DNA of 64,000 bases from Naegleria gruberi (taxonomy: Eukaryota): the NCBI GenBank assembly GCA_000004985.1, contig GG738862.1; one strand, given 5' to 3'. The notes under the pieces were generated by a model that saw nothing but the letters and a program-made list of their open reading frames with translations, ran no database searches and was not told the origin of the DNA. Positions 1 to 27,918 of the stretch are shown here, one piece after another. Both the position numbers and the translations under genes were made by a program. The first letter of the stretch is position 1. Every line of letters begins with the position of its first letter.

Positions 1-744
1 AGTTTATTGGTTAGTAATAAGAGTAGAGCAGTAGAGTATTCGAATCATTTTGTTTCGAATTTGAATAACGCAACTAGAGAATATTTAGAGAAGGCACTAT
101 ATGAAAGTGATAAGAATGATGCTATTGAGACCCTTTATATGGATTCGACAGCTATAATTGGAACCATACTATGTGGATTGGCTCTGTTAATTATACTTCC
201 GACCGGTTTTATTGCTACTTTTGGAAGAAATAACAAATTATTGGAAAAATTACAAAAAGTCAATGCAAAGGAGGTCTTGAAGACGGTGTCTGATACATAT
301 TTGAATACTTCCTTTAAAGAATATTGTAAAAATCATCAACAATTGAAATATTTTCTATTTTTAGAAAAATCATTACTTTATTCAGAATATTGTGAAGAAA
401 TATTTAATTTAAATTCAATTGAAAATTACTTAAATGGTACCAATACCAATTCTATAGAAACTAGAATTGATGAATTTGAATCTAAAAAGTGTGAAATTAT
501 CTTTGAAACCATGATTGAGTTTCTCAGCTCAAAAGGTGAATATTTTCTTGGTGAGAAACAAATTGGCGGGAAGAAATTAATTCAAAAAGTTAATAAGGAA
601 TTCAAATCTAATCCAATGAATTTACCAGAAAATTTATTAGATGAAATTGAATCGAATATTTCAATTTGTTTAATTTCAACACTCAAGTCATTTCAATCCA
701 CGCAAAAACAAAAGAGAACTCTTTACAATTTTTCAAAACAATAG
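1..744 (+). CDS. Two-TM membrane protein with C-terminal RGS-like domain, family paralogue. It is 5'-partial: the reading frame is open from window position 1.
   Basis: The ORF is open from nt 1 (ORF-track start at 7 is a TTG). The protein contains TM2 (IIGTILCGLALLIILPTGF) and the conserved C-terminal domain LEKLQKVNAKEVL...FKEYCKNHQQLKYFLFLEKSLLYSEYCEEIFNL...FLGEKQIGGKK...NPMNL shared with the genes at 4146, 5548, 7187 and 9046. Blocks of about 95 nt are nearly identical to the 4146 and 5548 genes. Confidence 0.5.
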   Translation, partial: SLLVSNKSRAVEYSNHFVSNLNNATREYLEKALYESDKNDAIETLYMDSTAIIGTILCGLALLIILPTGFIATFGRNNKLLEKLQKVNAKEVLKTVSDTYLNTSFKEYCKNHQQLKYFLFLEKSLLYSEYCEEIFNLNSIENYLNGTNTNSIETRIDEFESKKCEIIFETMIEFLSSKGEYFLGEKQIGGKKLIQKVNKEFKSNPMNLPENLLDEIESNISICLISTLKSFQSTQKQKRTLYNFSKQ

Positions 745-770
745 TCAACTTGAAGAGTTTGAGGAATTCT

Positions 771-895
771 TACTCTATATATATTTTGAGTAGTGAGATC
801 ATAAAACTCTAAATGAATTCCTTGCTATTATTACGAAGATATCATTGATTGATGGAAGAGGAAACCACTTGAATCATCGTATCAGTAAACACCAA
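771..895. repeat. About 125-bp dispersed duplicate. Its minus strand encodes ...VFTDTMIQVVSSSINQ* plus 3' flank, a copy of the C-terminal end of the RCC1-like gene (see 2459..2570).
   Basis: Direct alignment of 771-893 against 2459-2568 gives about 80-85% identity. Both copies contain tcattgattgatgga and gaatcatcgtatcagtaaa(c/t)acacca. Confidence 0.6.
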
Positions 896-990
896 GCCAT
901 ACTGAACCATACTGATGTGGCCCGATGATTCTTTGAGGCGCTCATCGTGATATGGTTAAAAGTTTGCTGATGTGTTACTGTACAATCAGC

Positions 991-1990
991 TTATTTTCTT
1001 AGTGATGTTAATTGTTTCATTTCACTTAAATATTTGGCTCCTTTATCACTAATTTCATTGTTATAAATATAAAGTAATGTCAGTTGTTTCATTTCACTTA
1101 TGTATTTGGCCCCTTCATCACTAATTTCATTGTAACCAATATTAAGTGATGTTAGTTGTTTCATTTCACTTATATATTTAGCTCCTTTATCACCAATTTG
1201 ATTGTCATAAATATAAAGCGATGTTAATTGTTTCATTTCACTGATGTGTTTGGCTCCTTCATCACTAGTTTCATTGTTAGAAACATTAAGTGATGTTAAT
1301 TGTTTCATTTCACTTAAATATTTGGCTCCTTTATCACTAATTTCATTGTTATAAATACAAAGTGATGTCAATTGTTTCATTTCACTGATGAATTTAGCTC
1401 CTTCAACAGTAATTTCATTGTAACCAATATTAAGTGATGTTAGTTGTTTCATTTCATTTATATATTTGGCCCCTTCATCACTAATTCGATTGTTAGAAAT
1501 ATAAAGTGATGTCAATTGTTTCATTTCACTTATGTATTTGGCTCCTTCATCACTAATTCATTGCTACCAATATTAAGTGATGTTAATTGTTTCATTTCAC
1601 TTATATATTTGGCTCCCTCTACACCAATTCGATTGTCATAAACATTAAGTGATGTTAATTGTTTCATTTCACTGATGAATTTAGCTCCTTCATCACGAAT
1701 TTCATTGTTAGAAACATTAAGTGATGTTAATTGTTTCATTTCACTGAAATATTTGGCTCCTTCATCACCAATTTCGATTGCTACCAATATTAAGTAATAT
1801 TAATTGTTTCATTTCACTTATATATTTGGCTCCTTTATCACTAATTTGATTGTAATATATATTAAGTGATGTTAGTTGTTTCATTTCACTTATATATTTG
1901 GCTCCTTCATAACCAATTAGATTGTGAGAAATATCAAGTGATGTCAATTGTTTCATTTCACTAATGAATTTGACTCTTTCTCTCGAGCCA
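991..1990 (-). repeat. 72-bp tandem repeat array of about 14 units. Each unit encodes a 24-aa RI-type leucine-rich repeat, MKQLTSLNIGYNEISDEGAKYISE.
   Basis: Visible 72-nt periodicity: gt(c/t)a(g/a)ttgtttcatttcac...ttggc(t/c)cc...tcatcactaatttcattg...attaagtgat, repeated head to tail. Confidence 0.85.
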
Positions 1991-2403
1991 AGCAAATATC
2001 CAGAAAATTCAACATTAACAATACTATTCCTAAATTGACTTTTCTTGAATAATTTAATTCTTTTCTTTGTAAATTTGTTTTTAAATTGAATAACAAGTTT
2101 TGAACGTTCCTTGATCACATTAAAGAATTGTTTTGAAATTAAAGTGCAATTATTTAAAATAAACCACGAATCATCAATCATTGAAATTATTTCAAAACAA
2201 ATATCATCTGAAAATATTTCTTGTCGCTGGAGTTTCACAAATTTTTTCTTCTGTTTTGCTTTCACCATATTATTATGGTCAATTGTGAATATTTCCTCCG
2301 AATTATTCGTATGATGATTTTCAAAATCTTGACTGTTTCGTTGACCCATTTTTTTAAATTTGAATGATTTAGAGAAATTGTCTGATATTTTAACAATCGG
2401 CAT
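991..2403 (-). CDS. F-box-like/LRR (ribonuclease-inhibitor-type) protein. The reading frame is interrupted by two compensating 1-nt homopolymer indels near 1556 and 1776, so this is a possible pseudogene or sequencing error.
   Basis: The N-terminal segment QEIFSDDICFEIISMIDDSWFILNNCTLISKQFFNVI is F-box-like. It is followed by 24-aa LRR units. The three ORFs 1765..2403, 1530..1787 and 991..1524 all read the same repeat consensus. The outer two share a frame (offset 879 = 3x293) and the middle one is shifted. Confidence 0.5.
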
Positions 2404-2458
2404 TGGAAAGCACTACTGCATAACAAAGTGATCTAATTATTGAAGGAAGTTAAAGACA

Positions 2459-2570
2459 CTCTATATTTGAGTGGTGGGATCATAAACTATATAGTACTAT
2501 TATTACAAAGATATCATTGATTGATGGATGAGGAAATTACTTGAATCATCGTATCAGTAAATACACCATC
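2459..2570. repeat. Second copy of the about 125-bp element. Here it forms the genuine 3' end (DGVFTDTMIQVISSSINQ* plus 3'UTR) of the minus-strand gene 2514..3824.
   Basis: Aligns to 771..895 (see that feature). Confidence 0.6.
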
Positions 2571-3824
2571 CCTCAATCTATTTTTCAGTTTTTCAGTCAT
2601 AGTCTTCATATTCAAAGAATGAGTAAAATAATCCTCTCTCCAATAAATTATATCAAGAAATTCAGAAGTGATGGATAATTTGGAATCTCCTTTAATATTG
2701 CTAGTTGTGTAGATGGGTGTCAGAATGAAAAACGAGTTACTAACCAAGTCATTCATTCGATAAATTGTTGAATTGTTGATAACTATGAAAAATTCTCTAC
2801 CCGAAGAATAAATTCTGCATGATTTGATAGTTTCAGGTTTCTTTCTTATTAGTTTCGTAATTTCAATCTTGTGATTTTTTGGGGAATAAATATGGAACTT
2901 GTCTAATTGAAATTCAATGTAAAAAACACATATTATTATGAGGAAACTTACTTGTTAATAGAGCTACTCCATTATATGTAGAAGCAATATCAATAACAAA
3001 TTCATTAGTATTTGAATCTGGTAGTGGAAACTCTTTCAACGAATCCCCAAATTCACTTCCACAACAAAAAACCTTTCCATCATTTGTAAGGGCCACAGTT
3101 TTATGATCTCCATTTACAACCTTTACAAAAAATGGTTTAATACTCTGCTGTTCATCTAAATTACATTCCATAATTCTTTTTTGAGAAAGGTTTGAGATTT
3201 GACTTGTTGATTGACCTGTTTCTCCAAATTTATTACATCCACTAGCCAATAGTCTTCCTTTGGATGTTAAATAAACAATAGTTGAAGATGCACATGAAAT
3301 AAATCTAACAAACTCATCCATTTCCAAACAATTTTCAAAATCCAAAATTTCATGCCAATCTCTAATGTCAAATGTTGGCGTAATTGATTTTTCAAATGAT
3401 AATTGATCAAATGATTCAGTTTCTCCACGATAAAGTTTAACATTCTCTCCAAAATAACCACTACCAGTATATATATATTGTATCCAAACACTTTCGTCTT
3501 ACATGTCACTCTATTCTGTACCAATAATAAGATATTACAATAGGAGGCACTAATTTCAATAATTGTTTCATTCCTCCGATCAGTAATAAATGGTAATTCT
3601 AATTTCCACCAAATTCCCTTCCTATACATGAATAATTCATCATCTTTGGTTACCACATAACAATAAAATAATCGGAAGAGAATAAACTTGATTGGTGCAA
3701 AACGACCAATAAAATCAGAATTTTCTATTTCACTCTTATTTCCACTCAAATTTATATCGGGATAGAATGAGACGAATCGATCGGATTTTTGTACAGTTTC
3801 AATTATTGTTGATGAATCAAACAA
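2514..3824 (-). CDS. RCC1-like repeat protein in three ORF pieces (3267..3824, 2914..3345, 2514..2756). There is a frame change near 3480-3500, caused by an intron or a frameshift.
   Basis: Motifs LLASGCNKFGETGQ and ALTNDGKVFCCGSEFGDSL resemble RCC1 blades (GxNxxGQLG). The pieces lie in different frames with no clean in-phase GT..AG pair found. Confidence 0.35.
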
Positions 3825-4145
3825 GTAAAGGAAATTGACAGGTTGCTTGTGGAGCCATTTTTTTTTCTTCTTAGATTTTAATAATTTTAGAAATCAAAAA
3901 AGTAATGATAATATTTAATTGATGAAGATGTGTGGTTAGCAAGTTGCAGGCCAAAAAATTAAGTGAATCAAAATAGAATTAAGGTGACCACTTACGACTT
4001 TCTAAATGCAATTCGAGTAATTTTTACTTCTTTCGTTCTCGTTAATGTCATGATCTTACTATTTTACTAATTTACCTTCAAGAGCTTTCTTTTTTAGGAA
4101 GATATCATCGAGCTAATCAACTTGCGCAGCGCCACATGAAAAAAA

Positions 4146-5432
4146 ATGACTTTAAATCCATCGACGTCTACATTTGAATTATCAGTGAAGATTGAACCAC
4201 ACAATGCACCACTTCATCAATTCAACAATAACAATAACAACAATAAAGAAACAACAAATAATTACTTTTCGGAAAGAAAAAAACGAAAATACAAGATTAA
4301 TACGAAATGTGGAAGTATTGAATTTGACATTGAAAGAATATTAACTTTTCTAGTCATGTTTGTGGTTGTTGCTTCTCTTCTTGGTTTGGCTATAATGAGT
4401 GGATTTGGTTTCATTCGAAGTTATAAAGAATTAAGTGTTTACTATTATGGTGGTAAATCAACAGGTTATTCTATTGAATTATCAACATATATGAGAATAG
4501 TATTATCTTCTGATATAATAATTAATGACAGATGGCTTTTAAAAATCAATTCAACTTTTGAGAATTGGTTGTATGCTTCTGAATGGGCAATTTTTCATTC
4601 TTTCTATGTTGATTATTATGAAATTCAATTACCACAAATAGTTAAAGACATTCAGAAAGAATATGAACACTTGTACAATTCACTACTATTACAAAATATT
4701 AACAAGACAAGTCAATTTCAATATTTTCAAAATGAATTTGTGAAAAGTGTTGAAAGTTTCAATGTGGATTATCTTTTGAGTGCTTATAGATATAGTCTAG
4801 CTATTAATGAAAGAGAATCAAGTTATATTGTCATTACTTCTATAATTGGAACTATTGTTTGTGCCTTGATATTACTAATTATACTTCCAACTGGTTTTAT
4901 TGCTACTTTTGGAAGAAATAACAAATTATTGGAAAAATTACAAAAAGTCAATGCAAAGGAGGTTTTGAAAACTATAAATGATCCTTATTTGAACGATCCA
5001 TTTCGGAAATTCTGCAAAGAAAATCAAAAACTTAATTACTTTCTATTTTTGGAAAAATCATTACTATATTCAGAATATTGTGAAGAAATATTTAATTTAA
5101 ATTCAATTGAAAATTACTTGAATGATAGTAGTACCAATTCTATAGAAACTAGAATTGATGAATTTGAATCTAAAAAATGTGAAATTATCTTTGAAATCAA
5201 AACTGAATTTCTAAATTCGAAAGGTGAATATTTTCTTGGTGAAAAACAAATTGGCGGGAAGAAAGAAATTCAAAAAGTGAAATTGGAATTCAAATCCAAT
5301 CCAATGAATTTATCTGATAATTTATTAGATGAAATTGAATCGAATATTTCAATTTGTTTAATTTCAACACTCAAATCATTTCAATCAAATCTTAAAAATA
5401 AGAAATTCATCTCAACCAAGTCGTTACAATAA
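4146..5432 (+). CDS. Two-TM receptor-like protein with cytoplasmic RGS-like domain (family paralogue)
   Basis: Basic juxtamembrane motif RKKRKYKINTKCGSIEFDIERILTF. TM1 is VMFVVVASLLGLAIMSGFGFI. An approximately 200-aa loop carries NxS/T sites. TM2 is IIGTIVCALILLIILPTGFIATF. The C-terminal domain matches the RGS-box pattern (F-K-x3-K-x9-F; ...CEE...; VNL(D/E)xS; (S/D)xxF(L)G). Confidence 0.55.
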   Translation: MTLNPSTSTFELSVKIEPHNAPLHQFNNNNNNNKETTNNYFSERKKRKYKINTKCGSIEFDIERILTFLVMFVVVASLLGLAIMSGFGFIRSYKELSVYYYGGKSTGYSIELSTYMRIVLSSDIIINDRWLLKINSTFENWLYASEWAIFHSFYVDYYEIQLPQIVKDIQKEYEHLYNSLLLQNINKTSQFQYFQNEFVKSVESFNVDYLLSAYRYSLAINERESSYIVITSIIGTIVCALILLIILPTGFIATFGRNNKLLEKLQKVNAKEVLKTINDPYLNDPFRKFCKENQKLNYFLFLEKSLLYSEYCEEIFNLNSIENYLNDSSTNSIETRIDEFESKKCEIIFEIKTEFLNSKGEYFLGEKQIGGKKEIQKVKLEFKSNPMNLSDNLLDEIESNISICLISTLKSFQSNLKNKKFISTKSLQ

Positions 5433-5547
5433 ACAACATTTGTTTCAATTATTTAGTTGTAAGTATTGTCGACAGCGCTATCCATTTCCAGAATATTTTA
5501 AATTTCCGTTTTAGGAAGATATTCATCCGAAACCTGTCATAAAAAAA

Positions 5548-6831
5548 ATGTCCACACCAACAACAAGCTCTTCAACATTGGAGTTGTTAGAAGAGGATTC
5601 TTCTCCCTCTCGGAAACAACAAGATCAATTCAATAATAATAACAAAAACAACATTATTTTGCCATCATCAACATATAAACTTTCGAATAGAAAGAAACGA
5701 AAGTTTATCATTAATACTAAATGTGGCAGTATTGAAATGAGCATTGAACGAATATTAACATTCCTAATCATGTTCATTGCCATATTTTCACTTTTCATTC
5801 TTTCAATTATTACAATCTATGCATTCTTCTTGAAAAATTACAATGAACATTCAATTTACAAAACATCACATCAAACTATTCAACATTCGAATAGATTATC
5901 TACTTATTTTCATATCATTTTATCAACTAATATTACAATAGATGATAGATGGTTATTAAAAATTAATTCTACTTTTATGGAATTTAAAGAAAAAGCATTA
6001 TTTGGAGCACTTTATTATTTTGAAATTTCCAATAATGGAAATGAATATATTAGACCAATGGAAATTGTTAAAATTGAACAAGATTATAATTATTTATATG
6101 AATTATTAACTAAAAATAAGAAAGATTTGGAATTTTATAAAAATCAATTTATTTATGGAATTGAAAATTATGTACAAAATTATTTGGAAATTGCTTTGAA
6201 GAAAAGTGATAAAAATGATGAAATAGAAACTATTTTTATGTATTCTACTGCTATAATTGGAACTATAATATGTGGATTGACTTTATTAATTATTATTCCA
6301 ACTAGTTGTATTGCCTTAATTGGAAATAATAACAAAATTATGAAAAAATTACAAAAAGTGAATGCAAAAGAAGTTTTAAATTTTATTTCAGATTCTTATT
6401 TGAATATTTCCTTTAAAGAATATTGTAAAAATCATCAACAATTAAAATACTTTCTATTTTTGGAAAAATCATTACTATATTCAGAATATTGTGAAGAAAT
6501 ATTTAATTTAAATTCAATAGATAATTACATCACTAATTCCAATACTAACCTGAGTGAAATACAAATAGATAAATTTGAATCTAAAAAATGTGAAGTTGTC
6601 TTTGAAATTATTACAGAATTTCTAAATTCGAAAGGTGAATATTTTCTTGGTGAGAAACAAATTGGCGGGAAGAAATTAATTGAAAAAGTTAATAAGGAAT
6701 TCAAATACAATCCAATGAATTTATCTGAAAATTTATTTAATATTATTGAATCAAATATTTCAATTCATTTATTTCCAACACTTAAATTATTTAAATCTAA
6801 TAGAAAGACTATTCCTAATCTAACAAATTGA
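5548..6831 (+). CDS. Two-TM receptor-like protein with cytoplasmic RGS-like domain (family paralogue)
   Basis: Same architecture (RKKRKFIINTKCGSIEMSIERILTFLIMF TM1, TM2 IIGTIICGLTLLIIIP, C-terminal FKEYCKNHQQLKYFLFLEKSLLYSEYCEEIFNL). Nucleotides 6440-6520 are nearly identical to 5040-5120 and 340-420. Confidence 0.55.
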   Translation: MSTPTTSSSTLELLEEDSSPSRKQQDQFNNNNKNNIILPSSTYKLSNRKKRKFIINTKCGSIEMSIERILTFLIMFIAIFSLFILSIITIYAFFLKNYNEHSIYKTSHQTIQHSNRLSTYFHIILSTNITIDDRWLLKINSTFMEFKEKALFGALYYFEISNNGNEYIRPMEIVKIEQDYNYLYELLTKNKKDLEFYKNQFIYGIENYVQNYLEIALKKSDKNDEIETIFMYSTAIIGTIICGLTLLIIIPTSCIALIGNNNKIMKKLQKVNAKEVLNFISDSYLNISFKEYCKNHQQLKYFLFLEKSLLYSEYCEEIFNLNSIDNYITNSNTNLSEIQIDKFESKKCEVVFEIITEFLNSKGEYFLGEKQIGGKKLIEKVNKEFKYNPMNLSENLFNIIESNISIHLFPTLKLFKSNRKTIPNLTN

Positions 6832-7186
6832 AAATATTAGTATTCTAATTAAGAAGACTCTTCTGAAGTTGATCACTAATTTAGTTTGATAGATCTTTAA
6901 TTTAACAATCAAATAGTATTTAGTCAACTCAATTACTCTTTAAGAATTTAAAATTCAACTATGAAAATTGAAAGTACATAATCATGATTACAATCCTCGT
7001 AGTTCGTAGTGTAAAACATTTTCAAGACACTTGTCTCTTTTATTCTTCAATTGTAACAACCATTAGCTATATAGAGATAGTTTCCATACCAAGGAAAAAT
7101 GACATGTTGACATTTGGTATCTTTTATAGACATTTGACCACCACATAAGCCAACAATCACGATTGCGATATCTTTCACTAAAAAAA

Positions 7187-8716
7187 ATGTCTCTTCAACA
7201 TGCTCTTCAACAACAAAGCAATTCAATTACCTTTGTTGAAATGGAGAATCTTCTCATCACCTTGAATATCGATAGTACAAATCAACTAGAACAACAAATA
7301 ACATCAACAATATTATCTTCCTTACCTTCTGCACATTTAAATAATTCAACTTCTATAACAACAACAACAGGTAGTTCACAACAGTTGTCAACTTTTAAAT
7401 ATTTTGATCAGAGTACAAGTAGTAGTACTTTGATAAAAATTATTGAGGAAGGAAATAATGATGGTGTTAATATTAATAAGAATATATCAATTCAACGAAA
7501 GAAGGAATTTATTATAAAAACTAAATGTGGTCAATTGGAATTGACATTTGACAGAATATTGGCATTTATTATCATGTTATTGGCAATTATAACATTATTA
7601 ATATTAGTAATATTATCTACTGGTACTATTTTCTTGCAAACTAATACAGAAAACAAAACTTTTAATAACTTTACAAAAGTTACAAAAAATTTAATAAGAT
7701 TGAATGCATATTATACTATTTTAATGGAAAGTAAATTAGATGAATTATTGATTGAGGAAATTAATGAAACAATGATTGATGTTAAAGTGGATTACAACAA
7801 GTTATTAATTGATATTCCTTATTATGGAAATACTGCTCAATATAGTAGGTCCAGAGTTGTTACAATTTTAAATAGAAATTTTAAATCTTTGGAGAGTAAT
7901 CATAATTATATTTATAATGAGATTATAGTAAATAATTATACAGATACTAAATTTTTCTATTCGAATTATCATCCTAGTTTAGTCAATTTCACACAAAGTT
8001 TAGACCTAGCTCTGATACTTGCTGATAAGGCTGCAAGTAATGAAGATGAATATATGAATATAAATGCAATCATTGATTTGTCTCTAGTTGGATTTGTATT
8101 GATAATCATAATTCCATCAATTGGTCTAATTTTAATCAAGTCAGCTGTCAATGACAACAAATTTATGGAAAAATTACAAAAAGCAGATGCAAGAATAGTG
8201 ATTGAAACAATTGCAGATCCTAGATATCAATCATATTTTAAAGAATTATGTAAAGAACATAATCAATTATCAAAATATCTATTTATGGAAAGAGTTCAAT
8301 TATTTAATGAAATATGTCAAAGAGTTTTCACATTACAAGATGAAATTGAAGAAGGAGTTAATCTAGAAATGAGTAAGAAAATGTTAATTGAAATTGATGA
8401 TTTAGAAGCAAAGAAATTTGAATTATCATTTGAATTAATTACAGAATATCTTGATTTAGGTAGTGATACCTTTTTAGGATTTAGATTAGTAGGTCGTAAA
8501 AGATCCATTGAGAAAATCAAAAAGATATTCGACACACAATCAATGAATTTGCCTGAAAATCTCTTCAAGAATATTCAATCAAATGTTTCATTGAATTTAC
8601 TTCCAATTTACAAATTATTTAAATCCAATCAACAACGAAAGAGAAATGAAAGAAAAATTAAAATTATTGCAAAACAACAAGACAAACATGAAATTATGAA
8701 AAATAAACAACAGTAA
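7187..8716 (+). CDS. Two-TM receptor-like protein with cytoplasmic RGS-like domain (divergent paralogue)
   Basis: KKEFIIKTKCGQLELTFDRILAFIIML TM1. An N-glycosylation-rich loop (NKTFNNFT, NETMIDV, NYTDTKFFYSNYHPSLVNFTQ). TM2 is LVGFVLIIIIPSIGLILI. C-terminal FKELCKEHNQLSKYLFMERVQLFNEICQRVF...GVNLEMS...GSDTFLGF. The start is placed at the ATG after an A7 run. The ORF-track start at 7163 is a TTG. Confidence 0.5.
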   Translation: MSLQHALQQQSNSITFVEMENLLITLNIDSTNQLEQQITSTILSSLPSAHLNNSTSITTTTGSSQQLSTFKYFDQSTSSSTLIKIIEEGNNDGVNINKNISIQRKKEFIIKTKCGQLELTFDRILAFIIMLLAIITLLILVILSTGTIFLQTNTENKTFNNFTKVTKNLIRLNAYYTILMESKLDELLIEEINETMIDVKVDYNKLLIDIPYYGNTAQYSRSRVVTILNRNFKSLESNHNYIYNEIIVNNYTDTKFFYSNYHPSLVNFTQSLDLALILADKAASNEDEYMNINAIIDLSLVGFVLIIIIPSIGLILIKSAVNDNKFMEKLQKADARIVIETIADPRYQSYFKELCKEHNQLSKYLFMERVQLFNEICQRVFTLQDEIEEGVNLEMSKKMLIEIDDLEAKKFELSFELITEYLDLGSDTFLGFRLVGRKRSIEKIKKIFDTQSMNLPENLFKNIQSNVSLNLLPIYKLFKSNQQRKRNERKIKIIAKQQDKHEIMKNKQQ

Positions 8717-9045: not shown

Positions 9046-10527
9046 ATGTCTCTTGACGAAACTGTTCGAAACAATGAAATTAATCTTGTTGAAATGGAGA
9101 ATGTTTTATATTCAATGAAGATTGATACTGAACAACAATTTTATGAATCAACTTCAACTCAACAAGATGCCTTCAATTCTTCATCTAATAATAATAACAA
9201 TATTGATAATACACAGTTGACTAGTAATAATAAACCTTTACAACAAACTAGTAATACAATAGTTAAAATTGAAGAAGGTCAACAAGAATATAACACTAGT
9301 GTAACAATACCACCTAAAATTCCAAAACAAGATCAACAATATATTATAAATACCAAATATGGACAATTACAATTATCATGTGATAGAATAATATCAGTAT
9401 TAATCATGTTATTAGCAATTATTACATTATTTATGATGGCATTTCTATCTGCATGTACTTTAATATTAGAAACTAATACTGAAAATAAAACATTTAATCA
9501 CACAACTCAATTATCAAAGAATTTAATAAGATTAAATACTTATTACAAAATTATTATGGAAAGTGAAATTGTAGAGTTGTTAGTTGAGGAAATTAATGAA
9601 ACAATGATTGATGTTACAAGTGATTATCATCTATTATTAAGAGATGTACCTTATACTGGTAACACTGATAAATATAGTAGGGCAAGTGTAATTACTAGAA
9701 TTGGAGATTATTTTAACATATTGGAAAGTAATCATTTTCATCTTTATAATCAAGTTATTGAAAATAATTATACAGATACTAAATTTTTCTATTCGAATTA
9801 TCATCCAAGCCTAGTCAATTTCACACAAAGTTTAGACCTAGCTCTGATACTTGCTGATAAAGCTGCAAGTAATGAAGACGAATATATGAATTTAAATGCA
9901 ATTATTGATCTTGTATTATCTGTATTTGTATTAATTATTATAATTCCATCAACTGCTATATTACTTATCAAGTCAGCTGTCAATGACAACAAGTTTTTAG
10001 AAAAATTAAAAAAAGCAGATGCAAGAGTAGTGATTGAAACAATTGCAGACATAAGATTACAGAATGAATTTAAAGAATTATGTAAAGAACATAATCAATT
10101 ATCAAAATATCTATTTATGGAAAGAGTTCAATCATTCAATGAAATATGTCAAAGAGTTTTCGCATTACAAGATGAAATTGAAGAAGGAGTTAATCTAGAA
10201 ATGAGTAAGAAAATGTTAATTGAAATCGATCAATTGGAATCTAAAAAATTTGAATTATCATTTGAATTAATTACAGAATATCTTGATTTAGGTAGTGATA
10301 CCTTTTTAGGATATCCTTTAATAGGTGGAAAGAAAGCAGCGGAGAAAATCAAAAAGATATTCGATACTCAATCTGTTCACTTACCTGAAAACTTGTTTAA
10401 AAATGTTCAATCAAATGTTTCTTTGAATTTACTTCCAATTTACAAATTATGTAAATCCAATCAACAACGAAAGAGAAATCAACGAATGAAATTAATGAAG
10501 AAACAACAATTAGCAACGACACAATAA
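9046..10527 (+). CDS. Two-TM receptor-like protein with cytoplasmic RGS-like domain (paralogue of the 7187 gene)
   Basis: About 70% identical to the 7187 gene product over the TM2 and C-terminal domain (FKELCKEHNQLSKYLFMERVQSFNEICQRVFALQDEIEEGVNLEMSKKMLIEID). The start is chosen at aaaaaaATGtctctt by analogy with 7187. The upstream part of ORF 8902.. lacks family similarity. Confidence 0.5.
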   Translation: MSLDETVRNNEINLVEMENVLYSMKIDTEQQFYESTSTQQDAFNSSSNNNNNIDNTQLTSNNKPLQQTSNTIVKIEEGQQEYNTSVTIPPKIPKQDQQYIINTKYGQLQLSCDRIISVLIMLLAIITLFMMAFLSACTLILETNTENKTFNHTTQLSKNLIRLNTYYKIIMESEIVELLVEEINETMIDVTSDYHLLLRDVPYTGNTDKYSRASVITRIGDYFNILESNHFHLYNQVIENNYTDTKFFYSNYHPSLVNFTQSLDLALILADKAASNEDEYMNLNAIIDLVLSVFVLIIIIPSTAILLIKSAVNDNKFLEKLKKADARVVIETIADIRLQNEFKELCKEHNQLSKYLFMERVQSFNEICQRVFALQDEIEEGVNLEMSKKMLIEIDQLESKKFELSFELITEYLDLGSDTFLGYPLIGGKKAAEKIKKIFDTQSVHLPENLFKNVQSNVSLNLLPIYKLCKSNQQRKRNQRMKLMKKQQLATTQ

Positions 10528-10744: not shown

Positions 10745-12181
10745 ATGGAGATTTTTGATATTTTCATAGCACTGATCGTTGCATTGGTTTTATTCATTTC
10801 CATTCGATTCTTTACCTCTCAAAAAGGAAAGAAGAATGAACCACCAAGAGTACCTAATTTCATACCTTATTTTGGATCATTTATTGGTTTTGCCAAGAAT
10901 CCAGTAAATTTCGTCATTGAAAATTCTAAAATATATGGAAACATATTCACTGCAACCATTTTAGGTAAAGAAATGACATTTATTAATCATCCAACATTAT
11001 TAGATACAGTATTCAAAGCAACAGATAATGAATTATCATTGAGAGATATTTACAAATTTATGAAACCTGTATTTGGTAATGGAGTTGTTTATGACGCCGA
11101 GTCAACTGAAAGAATGATGGAACAAGTTAAATTTGTTAGTTCTGGTTTAACAACTAGTCGTTTCAGAGTCTTTGTTGATATTATTGAAGATGAAGTTAAA
11201 CAAAGAGTTGAACAATTGGGAAATGAAGGAACTTTTAATTTACTTGACTTGTTAAGTGATTTGATAATTTTCACAGCATCACGTTGTCTATTAGGAGATC
11301 AAGTCAGAGAATATTTGAGTGAGAAACAATTAGGTAAATTATATCATGATATAGATGAGGGAATTAGTGCGTTATCATTCTTTTATCCTTCATTACCTGC
11401 TAATAGACGTGATGTTGCTAGAAAGGCAATTGGTGAAATATTTCAAGAATTATTGAATAAGAGAAGAGAAGAACATGTAAAGAATCCAGAACGTTTATTA
11501 GATGAATCTAAAATGGATATAGTTGATCATTTACTTTTACAAAAATATAAAGATGGTCAAGAATTAACAGATGAACATCGAATTGGAATTTTAATTGCTG
11601 GTTTATTTGCTGGTCAACATACTTCATCCATTACAAGTACTTGGACTTTATTGAATATCATTTCTAATAAGAGAATTGAACAACAATTTAGAAATGAACA
11701 ATTATTACTTGAAAAGGAAAAGATGAATTATGAAACTATTATGAAAATGGAATATTTAGAAGCATGTATGAAAGAAGCACTTAGAATGTATCCACCACTT
11801 ATTATGGTAATGAGAATGGCTAGAAAACCAAGACAATGTGAAGAATTCATAATTCCTAAAGGTAATATTATTGTAGTTTCACCTTCGGCTGCTGGTAGAT
11901 GTAAAGATGTTTATTCTAATCCAGACGAATTCAATCCTGAACGTTTTACTGAATTGAAAGAACATGAAAAGTTTAAATATGGTTCAATTCCGTTTGGTGC
12001 AGGACGTCACAAATGTATTGGTGAAAATTTTGCACTTTTACAAGTGAAAAGTGTAATTTCCATTCTATTGAGATATTATGATATGGAATATAGTGGTGAA
12101 ATGCCATCTCCTTCATATACTTCAATGGTTGTTGGTCCTGATAAACCAATTATTGTAAAATATAAAAGAAGATTACAATAA
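10745..12181 (+). CDS. CYP51: Cytochrome P450 family 51, sterol 14-alpha-demethylase
   Basis: N-terminal membrane anchor plus PPRVPNFIPYFGSFIGFAKNPVNF. Helix-I signature AGQHTSS (CYP51 hallmark). Heme loop FGAGRHKCIGENFA. EXXR (EALR). It is a single exon. Confidence 0.85.
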   Translation: MEIFDIFIALIVALVLFISIRFFTSQKGKKNEPPRVPNFIPYFGSFIGFAKNPVNFVIENSKIYGNIFTATILGKEMTFINHPTLLDTVFKATDNELSLRDIYKFMKPVFGNGVVYDAESTERMMEQVKFVSSGLTTSRFRVFVDIIEDEVKQRVEQLGNEGTFNLLDLLSDLIIFTASRCLLGDQVREYLSEKQLGKLYHDIDEGISALSFFYPSLPANRRDVARKAIGEIFQELLNKRREEHVKNPERLLDESKMDIVDHLLLQKYKDGQELTDEHRIGILIAGLFAGQHTSSITSTWTLLNIISNKRIEQQFRNEQLLLEKEKMNYETIMKMEYLEACMKEALRMYPPLIMVMRMARKPRQCEEFIIPKGNIIVVSPSAAGRCKDVYSNPDEFNPERFTELKEHEKFKYGSIPFGAGRHKCIGENFALLQVKSVISILLRYYDMEYSGEMPSPSYTSMVVGPDKPIIVKYKRRLQ

Positions 12182-25353: not shown

Positions 25354-27918
25354 ATGTCATTACACGATGATCAATTATCCTCCTCTATTACAACTCCCCA
25401 ACAAGATGATGATATTAATAATAAAGATATTGTTGATGAATTGAATAAATATGATATTAATAATAATAATATATTTGGTTATAATAAACAAATAAATAAA
25501 AAACAAATTATATATGGATGTGGTGATGGATTTTGGAAGAAACAAACCGATATAATATCAATTACTAAATTAACAAATTTTGATAAAATAGATTATTTAC
25601 AAAATTATATATTAAATGATAAAATAATTAAATTTAAATGTAAAGATCAATTATGTATATTTCTTACTAGTAATGGAAATGTATATAAAATGGGACAATG
25701 TACATTTATAAATAATTGTACAAATATTCCAACATTAATTAATAATTTTAAAAATGATAAAATTATTGATTTTTCNNNNNNNNNNNNNNNNNNNNNNNNN
25801 NNNNNNNNNNNNNNNNNNNNNNNNNNNNNNNNNNNNNNNNNNNNNNNNNNNNNNNNNNNNNNNNNNNNNNNNNNNNNNNNNNNNNNNNNNNNNNNNNNNN
25901 NNNNNNNNNNNNNNNNNNNNNNNNNNNNNNNNNNNNNNNNNNNNNNNNNNNNNNNNNNNNNNNNNNNNNNNNNNNNNNNNNNNNNNNNNNNNNNNNNNNN
26001 NNNNNNNNNNNNNNNNNNNNNNNNNNCTTTTATAGAATATAAAAAAAATGGTAAATATCAAGTTGACTATTTTTATACTTTAAATTTTACAAATATTACT
26101 AAAATAGTAAAAGAATGTAATAAAAATAAAAATATATTTATTAATAATAATAAAATACAAGATATTAAAGATATTCAATGTAATGGTATTAATACTATAA
26201 TTATTTATAATGATAATACAAATATATTATCTCCTTTATTTAATGATTATTATAATCCAATTAAAAATGAAATTATTTTAAATAAAGTTTATAATAATTT
26301 TATTTTTGAAAATGTATATCAAAAATTAATTTTAAATGAATATCAAATTTTATATTTAAATAATAATAATGAATGTAAATTTATTGATTATAATGGTAAT
26401 TTATTTAAAATGGATAATATTATAAATATGGAAAGTGGTACATTTCATAGTTTTTTACAAACTATTGATAATAAATTTTATTCATTTGGATCTAATGAAT
26501 TTGGTGAATTAGGATATAATAAGAAATTTAATGAATTAAAACAAGTTGAATTACCATTTACTATTAAGGAAGGTGATAATGTTCAAATTTGTTGTGGTAA
26601 AAATTTTACTATTTTAATACATGAAACAGATAATGATGAAATATTTAAAATTAATAATTTAATTGTAACTGATAATTTTAATTTTAATTATGAAATTAAT
26701 TCAAATTTTTATTTAAATTTAAATTTATTAAAAAATATTTCCAATGATTTTTATAATTTAATTACAAATAATAATATAATTGAATATTTAAATGAAAATG
26801 ATCAAAAAGCATTATATTATTTAATTAAAAATGCATTAATTAATTTAAATAATTTAACTAATTTAGATGAATTATTTATTAATTATGATAAATTTATAAA
26901 ATTAATTTCCTTTAATGAAATTGAATTAAATTTAGTAACATGTCTATTTATATTAAATGATATAAATGATATTAATAATGAAATTAAATTATTATTATTT
27001 AATGATCTATCAAATAGAATTAATATTGATAATATTATGAATATTTTACAAAAAGTTAATAATTATCTTTCTTTAAATATTTTAAAACAATCTAAAAATA
27101 GTATTTTATTATTATTAGCAAATAAATGTTTAGCATTTATTAAAGAAAATGAAAAATTATTAAAATCAGAAAAATTATTTGAAATTATTAAAGATAAATT
27201 ATTAAATATTAAAAAATCATTTAAACAAATTATTTATAAAATTGATAATATTACTACTATAAATGGAATTGATAATAATATTAAAAATATAAATGAATCA
27301 TTAAAATTATTATATAATAATAATGAAAATAATGATATTAAAATTATAATTGATGAAAATTCAAATGAAATATTATATTTACATAAAAGTATATTATCTA
27401 TTCATAGTCCAGTTTTAAATATTTTATTTAAAAATTTAAATATTAATGAAATTAATTTATATGAATTTATTGAAATGATGATATCAGATGAATGGATAAT
27501 TAATTTATTTAAATATTCAAATAAAATTAATGAAATATTAAAAATAATATTTAAATTATGTTATGGATATAAATTAAATAATTTAAATTTAAATAATTTA
27601 ATTGGTATTTTAATTATTTCACAACAATTAGATATTACATGGTTAATTAAATATACATGTAATTTAATTATTGAAAAATTTAATGAAATTAATGATACTG
27701 AATTTATTTTATTACTAAATTTAGTATCAATTTCACAAAATAATAATAATTGTAAAGAATTTGTTGAATATTTTAAAATATTTTGTTCAAATAATTTATC
27801 ATTTGATTATTTACAAAAAATACAATCAGTTTGTAAAGATAATCAATCATGTGATAATTTTATTAAAATTATTATTGATTATTATTTAAGAGTACATACT
27901 ATAAATAGAAAATATTAA
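25354..27918 (+). CDS. RCC1-repeat plus BTB/POZ-domain protein (RCBTB-like), extremely AT-rich. The CDS is interrupted by an assembly gap.
   Basis: YSFGSNEFGELGYNKK and GCGDGFW are RCC1-blade-like. ILYLHKSILSIHSPVLNILFKN is the BTB core. The N run inside the ORF is read as X. Confidence 0.4.
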   Translation: MSLHDDQLSSSITTPQQDDDINNKDIVDELNKYDINNNNIFGYNKQINKKQIIYGCGDGFWKKQTDIISITKLTNFDKIDYLQNYILNDKIIKFKCKDQLCIFLTSNGNVYKMGQCTFINNCTNIPTLINNFKNDKIIDFXXXXXXXXXXXXXXXXXXXXXXXXXXXXXXXXXXXXXXXXXXXXXXXXXXXXXXXXXXXXXXXXXXXXXXXXXXXXXXXXXXXXXFIEYKKNGKYQVDYFYTLNFTNITKIVKECNKNKNIFINNNKIQDIKDIQCNGINTIIIYNDNTNILSPLFNDYYNPIKNEIILNKVYNNFIFENVYQKLILNEYQILYLNNNNECKFIDYNGNLFKMDNIINMESGTFHSFLQTIDNKFYSFGSNEFGELGYNKKFNELKQVELPFTIKEGDNVQICCGKNFTILIHETDNDEIFKINNLIVTDNFNFNYEINSNFYLNLNLLKNISNDFYNLITNNNIIEYLNENDQKALYYLIKNALINLNNLTNLDELFINYDKFIKLISFNEIELNLVTCLFILNDINDINNEIKLLLFNDLSNRINIDNIMNILQKVNNYLSLNILKQSKNSILLLLANKCLAFIKENEKLLKSEKLFEIIKDKLLNIKKSFKQIIYKIDNITTINGIDNNIKNINESLKLLYNNNENNDIKIIIDENSNEILYLHKSILSIHSPVLNILFKNLNINEINLYEFIEMMISDEWIINLFKYSNKINEILKIIFKLCYGYKLNNLNLNNLIGILIISQQLDITWLIKYTCNLIIEKFNEINDTEFILLLNLVSISQNNNNCKEFVEYFKIFCSNNLSFDYLQKIQSVCKDNQSCDNFIKIIIDYYLRVHTINRKY
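25777..26026. other. Assembly gap (run of about 250 N) inside the RCC1/BTB gene
   Basis: Contiguous n characters. The frame continuity across the gap is an artefact of the placeholder length. Confidence 0.95.

Follow-up and report, generated by a model that had tools for sequence, protein, structure and literature searches.

Evidence for short-tract interlocus gene conversion in a tandem array of two-transmembrane RGS-like genes of Naegleria gruberi

Introduction

Interlocus gene conversion within tandem gene families is exemplified by the primate gamma-globin, RHD/RHCE, opsin and KIR genes. In Naegleria gruberi, the flagellar alpha-tubulin family has been described as 'exceptionally similar' (PMC2115128). 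Here we describe a tandem array of genes for proteins with two transmembrane segments (2TM) and an RGS-like domain, located at the left end of a 64-kb stretch of an N. gruberi scaffold (contig GG738862.1; the whole 64,000-nucleotide (nt) stretch is referred to below as the window). The sequences of these genes are mosaics of one another, very probably as a result of short-tract interlocus (ectopic) gene conversion among same-orientation paralogues.

RGS proteins with seven transmembrane segments (7TM-RGS) include those of Naegleria fowleri and AtRGS1 (PMC9283941), and architectures in which RGS domains are fused to transmembrane segments are found across eukaryotes (PMC3971589). N. fowleri has a further 79 RGS proteins outside the 7TM class (PMC9283941), and some RGS domains are without GTPase-activating protein (GAP) activity (PMC3971589). 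Each protein of the N. gruberi array has two hydrophobic segments, not seven, and is composed of an N-terminal tail, a first transmembrane segment (TM1), a helical ectodomain of ~150-190 amino acids (aa), a second transmembrane segment (TM2), and a divergent cytosolic RGS-like domain.

Results

A tandem array of five paralogues

The window is AT-rich (GC 0.12-0.35), and five homologous + strand genes, which we designate A to E, are arranged in tandem between positions 1 and 10527 (Table 1; a letter before a position names the gene in which it lies). The paralogues are spaced 1.4-4.7 kb apart, all within 10.5 kb and in one orientation, a closeness compatible with conversion among them. Genes A, B and C form one subfamily, and D and E a second one with ~35% aa identity to the first. 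Gene A is truncated by the window edge, and positions 1-741 correspond to residues 186-432 of protein P0002 at 100% identity (tblastn). The annotated members NAEGRDRAFT_66403, 66405, 66406 and 66407 all lie on one 502,116-nt contig, and by the order of locus tags and accessions NAEGRDRAFT_66402 (P0004) is a sixth member that precedes A, immediately outside the left edge of the window. Gene C is apparently missing from the reference annotation, in which its neighbours 66403, 66405, 66406 and 66407 are annotated; its exact product has no match in a collection of 15 billion proteins, and the gene is conserved at 98.6% in a contig from another strain. A tblastn search (E <= 1e-3) of the 64-kb window revealed no further copies or pseudogene fragments that could be hidden donors.

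The closest paralogue alternates along the genes

We aligned the three genes of the first subfamily in registers of +4688 (A to B), +6099 (A to C) and +1411 (B to C), and scored as informative those sites at which two of them agree against the third. Over ~600 nt the partner that A resembles changes six times or more, each segment being 20-80 nt long (Table 1). There are no A-B differences among the 71 nt of A205-275, where C differs at ~27% of sites, and the next 76 nt (A276-351) contain 30 such differences. At A306-348, A and C differ at only two positions, with ~40% divergence from B. The first of the A-B tracts spans the end of TM2 and the juxtamembrane helix. The original prediction, made from the sequence alone, was of gene conversion of the TM2/RGS-like module. 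The module is not homogenised as a whole: short tracts, ~20-80 nt between informative sites, form a patchwork in which the partner changes, and gene C lies outside the first of the blocks on which the prediction was founded.

Those blocks (181-285, 4876-4980 and part of 6300-6400; 340-420, 5040-5120 and 6440-6520) had been put at 97-98% identity. Near-identical blocks do exist, although the coordinates for A and B were 7 nt out of register, and 181-285 and 4876-4980 taken literally are just 27% identical. In register, A181-285 is 89.5% identical to B, A340-420 is 91.4% identical to B and 93.8% to C, and the full blocks have 89.5-96% identity; the higher figure applies to narrower cores (Table 1) but not to the blocks as a whole. 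Gene C is not a partial sharer of the first block, as A181-285 is only 72% identical to it.

The change of partner is significant in bins set beforehand at 45, 60 or 90 nt (permutation p = 5e-5). With 60-nt bins across A101-A700, the odd-one-out counts (AB/AC/BC) are 2/18/7, 9/7/6, 10/0/1, 3/17/3 and 0/2/3 for bins 1-5, and 13/3/1, 10/1/4, 0/3/4, 4/5/3 and 11/0/1 for bins 6-10, a heterogeneity corresponding to a chi-square of 80.4 (permutation p = 5e-5, and p = 6.5e-4 at third codon positions alone). A runs test on the closest-paralogue pattern gave p < 5e-5. The longest identical fragments are significant in a GENECONV-style permutation for A-B, A-C, B-C and D-E (p = 2e-4), and non-significant for most pairs across the subfamilies. 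Sliding-window identity among the paralogues is strongly non-uniform along the gene, and synonymous divergence (dS, Nei-Gojobori) is 0.07-0.25 in the tracts versus 0.8 to saturated in the flanks, the ectodomain and the C-terminal tail, a difference of ~10-fold. Gene conversion among the array members, as originally proposed, is thus borne out by the non-uniform identity, the significant fragments, the dS contrast and the alternating closest paralogue, and its short-tract interlocus form in the TM2-RGS half is well supported.

We considered whether one history of duplication, combined with purifying selection of uneven strength and codon bias, could generate the same picture, the blocks then being no more than the parts of the TM2-RGS module under the greatest constraint. 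In every pair, nonsynonymous divergence (dN) is indeed lower for the RGS-like half than for the ectodomain. The core A352-419 is conserved among A, B and C, the codon is the same for 62-73% of identical residues even between subfamilies, and an N. fowleri tandem pair described below has the same protein-level profile, which is obtainable by constraint alone. However, constraint would reduce divergence equally across the pairs and cannot produce an alternation of the closest paralogue such as that between A205-275 and A306-348. The heterogeneity also persists at third codon positions, and constraint leaves unexplained the strain variants that copy paralogue bases. The mosaic is therefore not mere uneven constraint, because the closest paralogue alternates (A=B, A=C, A=B and onward); this alternation is the decisive signal for conversion, and it largely refutes constraint as the sole explanation, which we regard as improbable.

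Variants in another strain carry paralogue bases

A 1901-nt metagenome contig from another strain (L001; ENA ERZ929261) is 98.6% identical to positions 5136-7002 of the window, and independently reproduces the 3' end of B, the spacer and gene C, together with the same mosaic blocks. Of the 14 substitutions within the paralogous parts of B and C, 11 occupy positions that vary among the paralogues (29% expected), and in 10 the base is exactly that of a paralogue. These counts are significant under an unconditioned model (P = 8e-5 and 7e-4) and when conditioned on variable sites (P = 3e-4), at which roughly 36% would be expected to match a paralogue base. This supports the view that the pattern is the expected footprint of conversion events differing between the strains, and with 10 of 14 inter-strain differences in one contig copying paralogue bases, the suggestion that conversion is ongoing is supported.

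The same contig bears on whether reads of similar paralogues were merged into a false mosaic consensus. The assembly is a draft with a gap at 25776-26026, and exact runs common to the paralogues reach 71 nt, which makes such an artefact conceivable. The reproduction of the blocks in an independently assembled contig from another sample, 98.6% identical over the 3' end of B, the spacer and the whole of C, nonetheless makes it extremely improbable, as do the intact open reading frames (ORFs) of all five genes; moreover, a sequencing read is much longer than any of the segments, and read-level chimeras are therefore implausible.

Two further differences were noted in L001. A 2-nt deletion relative to window 5602-5603, in the 5' part of gene C, shifts the frame, and the called product therefore begins further downstream. 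A 26-nt indel corresponds to window 7003-7028 in the C-D spacer. An exact-pattern scan of metagenome contigs with a 29-nt shared core gave no match.

Relationships among other array members

Protein-level comparison of 66402 with A, B and C shows 15-35% aa identity in the ectodomain and ~50% where the RGS domain begins, through its first half, followed by an abrupt switch to 90-100% identity with B alone over ~65 residues; the rest of 66402 is only 15-55% identical to B, and its tail resembles the tail of A. This junction is a single sharp switch of a kind that one crossover could produce. We considered whether the genes are chimeras generated by unequal crossing-over or segmental duplication in the array, that is by reciprocal exchange and domain shuffling. 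The genes are tandem, close and in the same orientation, and D and E resemble a fairly recent duplicate pair throughout. But to account for at least six partner changes in ~600 nt would require many nested crossovers, each altering copy number, and both the spacing and the lengths of the genes stay regular. We consider such an origin as improbable as one by constraint alone.

The D-E region of high identity reaches into the end of the ectodomain (7930-8068). Two adjacent 2TM-RGS genes of N. fowleri, FDP41_008207 and FDP41_008208 (P0014 and P0058), encode proteins with an aa identity of 20-60% in their N-terminal and ectodomain parts and of 90-95% over the latter half of the RGS domain, a profile like that of the N. 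gruberi array; seen at the protein level only, it is no more than a lead.

The ectodomains are diverged

The original prediction described the ectodomains as strongly diverged, and they are: B and C are 43-65% identical at the nucleotide level and 25-55% at the aa level, with a third-position identity of 0.3-0.5. That they are also diversifying does not follow. Ectodomain dN/dS is ~0.5 with dS near saturation (dN 0.57 and dS 1.18 for B-C; dN 0.27 and dS 0.87 for D-E), and thus not above 1, leaving positive selection unsupported. This indicates an old, weakly constrained divergence that escaped conversion, which is a sufficient explanation.

A plausible route to the mosaic

We infer the repair mechanism and the reason for the limitation to the 3' half, and any direction assigned to an individual event would be similarly inferential. 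A plausible explanation is that a break or nick in one copy would be repaired by homologous recombination with a neighbouring copy 1.4-6 kb away as template, a non-reciprocal transfer of some tens to about a hundred bases. Many such events, the partner varying from one to the next (A with B, A with C, B with C, B with 66402, and D with E), would then produce the patchwork. The tracts are confined to the TM2-RGS half, perhaps because purifying selection there preserves enough similarity for heteroduplex formation. The ectodomain, together with the N-terminal tail and the extreme end of the C-terminal tail (40-60% nt identity), is presumably too diverged to pair, so that these parts would escape conversion and keep drifting. 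Naegleria encodes recombination and mismatch-correction machinery (PMC9928731).

Several points weigh against conversion as we read it, or narrow its reach. The tract limits were read post hoc from the data, the fixed-bin test being independent of them. Codon bias is strong, with 62-73% of identical amino acids sharing a codon even between subfamilies, and because of this synonymous identity is weaker evidence than it appears; the stand-alone argument that synonymous identity proves conversion was dropped. At the DNA level the comparison within the A/B/C subfamily is of three sequences without a usable outgroup to polarise the changes, and conversion donors and directions are therefore not assigned. 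The tracts are not GC-enriched, as they would be with a GC-biased conversion signature, and the three-gene core A352-419 could be explained by constraint alone. No mosaic was seen at the protein level in the triplet of D, E and P0006, of which P0006 is unlinked and D and E are sisters throughout, and the D-E pattern could reflect recent duplication with uneven constraint as an alternative to conversion. Finally, the inter-strain evidence is from a single metagenome contig, in which the density of substitutions in the paralogous part compared with elsewhere (14/895 vs 6/801, p = 0.18) is a trend only.

The C-terminal domain is related to RGS domains

Basic residues are present upstream of TM1 and downstream of TM2 in the array proteins, and because of this placement the ~150-190-aa loop between the membrane segments is probably extracellular. 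In an AlphaFold model of C (25-sequence alignment, pLDDT 76.6) the loop forms a helical bundle between two membrane-length helices, and the C-terminal domain is helical.

None of A to E matches Pfam RGS (PF00615) even at E <= 1, and the family threshold is not reached. Searches against PDB sequences with a C-terminal-domain profile gave no match, phmmer with the RGS region of one relative against PDB gave noise only, Foldseek with the domain model against PDB gave no match at E <= 0.001, and a homologous-protein search queried with the domain alignment also gave no match. A profile of six C-terminal domains, however, matched 54 proteins among 1.84 billion representatives, including P0009 (8e-18) and P0010 (2e-15). 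PF00615 is carried by 42 of 52 profile matches, several of them above the 23.9-bit threshold, and at coordinates coinciding with the profile match. These relatives belong to N. gruberi and, as distant proteins, to N. fowleri, N. lovaniensis and Willaertia magna; 'RGS domain-containing protein' is the name given to several of them. We assign an RGS fold to the C-terminal domain, and its homology to RGS is well supported at the level of sequence profiles; the RGS-like label was correctly chosen, as the profile reaches proteins with PF00615 over coinciding coordinates.

The array subfamily is without the S-x-E-N and V-N-L/I motifs, and other heterolobosean 2TM-RGS relatives keep S-x-E-N and V-N-I. 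In an alignment with relatives and the RGS4 box, the positions equivalent to RGS4 Asn88 and Asn128 are K/Y or S/K, and Leu in 'FLG' with a 4-aa insertion, in A to E, 66402, P0006 and P0007. The two asparagines, within S-x-E-N and V-N-L/I, are G-alpha contact residues. Because the motifs that hold them are missing, the array domain may be an RGS-homology domain without GAP activity.

Other features of the window

A minus-strand leucine-rich repeat (LRR) gene and an RCC1-like gene sit between A and B. The LRR gene is flanked by a 68-nt direct repeat (825-892 and 2497-2564, 93% identical), both copies of which encode, on the minus strand, the C-terminal '...VFTDTMIQV(I/V)SSSINQ*' of the RCC1-like gene (2514-3824). 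As the copies bracket the LRR gene, this suggests that a local duplication or insertion put it there. The LRR gene itself (LRR_6-type, 991-2403, minus strand) contains 13 tandem 72-nt (24-aa) units at 929-2062 that are up to 92% mutually identical, and is a second, intragenic case of repeat homogenisation nearby. Within the RCC1-like locus, minus-strand ORFs 2914-3345 and 3267-3824 overlap in different frames; either an intron has gone unrecognised there or the gene is a frameshifted pseudogene. A cytochrome P450 gene, NAEGRDRAFT_48319 (10745-12181; Pfam p450, E = 1.4e-73), follows directly after the array. The assembly gap noted above is a run of N inside a long ORF (25354-27918).

Table 1. 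Positions of array genes, domains, segments of shared similarity and tracts. Positions are those of the window; counterparts are given where the feature is aligned to another gene.
Feature	Position	Strand	Counterpart	Observation
Gene A, 3' 247 codons and stop	1-744	+		NAEGRDRAFT_66403 (EFC45572); 5' part left of window
Gene B, 428 aa	4146-5432	+		NAEGRDRAFT_66405 (EFC45573); ORF identical to P0003
Gene C, intact 427-aa ORF	5548-6831	+		ORF; exact product absent from protein collection
Gene D, 509 aa	7187-8716	+		Product identical to NAEGRDRAFT_66406; second subfamily
Gene E, 493 aa	9046-10527	+		Product identical to NAEGRDRAFT_66407; second subfamily
TM2 of gene A (AIIGTILCGLALLIILPTGFIATFG)	151-225	+		Translation, alignment, hydrophobic segments
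TM2 homologous segments	B 4839-4913; C 6250-6324	+		Alignment
RGS-like cytosolic domain	A 244-702	+	B 4932-5390; C 6343-6801	
Segment	A101-186			24 AC vs 2 AB sites
Segment	A187-290			21 AB vs 3 AC sites
Segment	A291-351			17 AC vs 1 AB sites
Segment	A352-419			Nearly invariant in A, B and C
Segment	A420-475			19 AB vs 3 AC sites
Segment	A555-608			7 AC vs 2 AB sites
Segment	A609-698			13 AB vs 1 AC sites
A-B tract 1	205-284	+	B 4893-4972	19/20 informative sites A=B against C
A-C tract	306-348	+	C 6405-6447	17/17 informative sites A=C against B
Three-gene core	352-419	+	B 5040-5107; C 6451-6518	2 variable sites, both private to A
A-B tract 2	420-472	+	B 5108-5160	18/18 informative sites in its two sub-runs A=B
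A-C tract	555-596	+	C 6654-6695	7/8 informative sites; inside 51-nt exact run A532-582
A-B tract 3	639-684	+	B 5327-5372	11/11 informative sites; inside 56-nt exact run A631-686
Near-identical core	A188-275		B 4876-4963	2 mismatches/88 nt (97.7%); 71-nt exact run A205-275
Near-identical core	A352-431		B 5040-5119	2 mismatches/80 nt (97.5%)
Near-identical core	B 5037-5107		C 6448-6518	Exact, 71 nt
B part shared with 66402	5169-5372	+	NAEGRDRAFT_66402 (P0004)	90-100% identical, protein level only
D-E high-identity region	7930-8480	+	E 9762-10312	Exact runs 45-67 nt

Discussion

The array indicates that paralogues in N. gruberi are actively recombining and have done so recently. We know of no observation of a sexual cycle in this organism. 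For the very large RGS expansion of Naegleria, phylogenies and orthology assignments that use the RGS domain alone will be misleading. The observations further draw attention to an uncharacterised 2TM family with a helical ectodomain and an RGS-like domain in Naegleria and Willaertia, and the family itself is perhaps the more intriguing lead, with its predicted receptor-like topology and an RGS-homology domain apparently lacking the GAP contact residues. One doubtful but conceivable view is that it constitutes an undescribed heterolobosean receptor-like class, in which TM1, a four-helix-bundle ectodomain and TM2 would be joined to an RGS-homology output without canonical G-alpha contacts; conversion would then keep the cytosolic modules of neighbours interchangeable for a common signalling partner while the ligand-facing bundles diverge freely.

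Like other transmembrane RGS proteins, the array proteins appear to be membrane-anchored with an extracellular region and a C-terminal cytosolic domain of the RGS family, and they belong to the large heterolobosean RGS expansion. They differ from the 7TM-RGS proteins, both AtRGS1 and those of N. fowleri, in having two hydrophobic segments and a predicted helical bundle between them, and in falling below the Pfam RGS threshold. Some RGS-homology domains, such as those of SNX13/SNX25, GRK and axin, have no GAP function; as judged by sequence, the array domain is not a member of those families. The bacterial 2TM sensors with a periplasmic four-helix bundle (chemoreceptors of the Tar/Tsr/PcaY type, and the histidine kinases QseE, NarX/NarQ and TorS) are similar in form only: four-helix bundles are ubiquitous, equally good scores are obtained with talin, vinculin and designed bundles, there is no sequence or Pfam match, and the array output, unlike theirs, is an RGS-like domain in a eukaryote.

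With respect to conversion, the array resembles the known converting tandem families: its paralogues lie near one another in one orientation, the patches are short and non-reciprocal, fragments of the GENECONV type are significant and dS is locally low. Phylogenetic incongruence along the gene and the reappearance of paralogous variants as allelic differences are likewise common to both. The array differs from those families in that only the 3' half is involved, in copies that are otherwise old (dS at least 1), and in showing a fine patchwork and not near-identical genes. Ectopic conversion in a tandem family is a textbook process, and the array presents a new instance of it, in an uncharacterised heterolobosean 2TM-RGS family, with no new mechanism.

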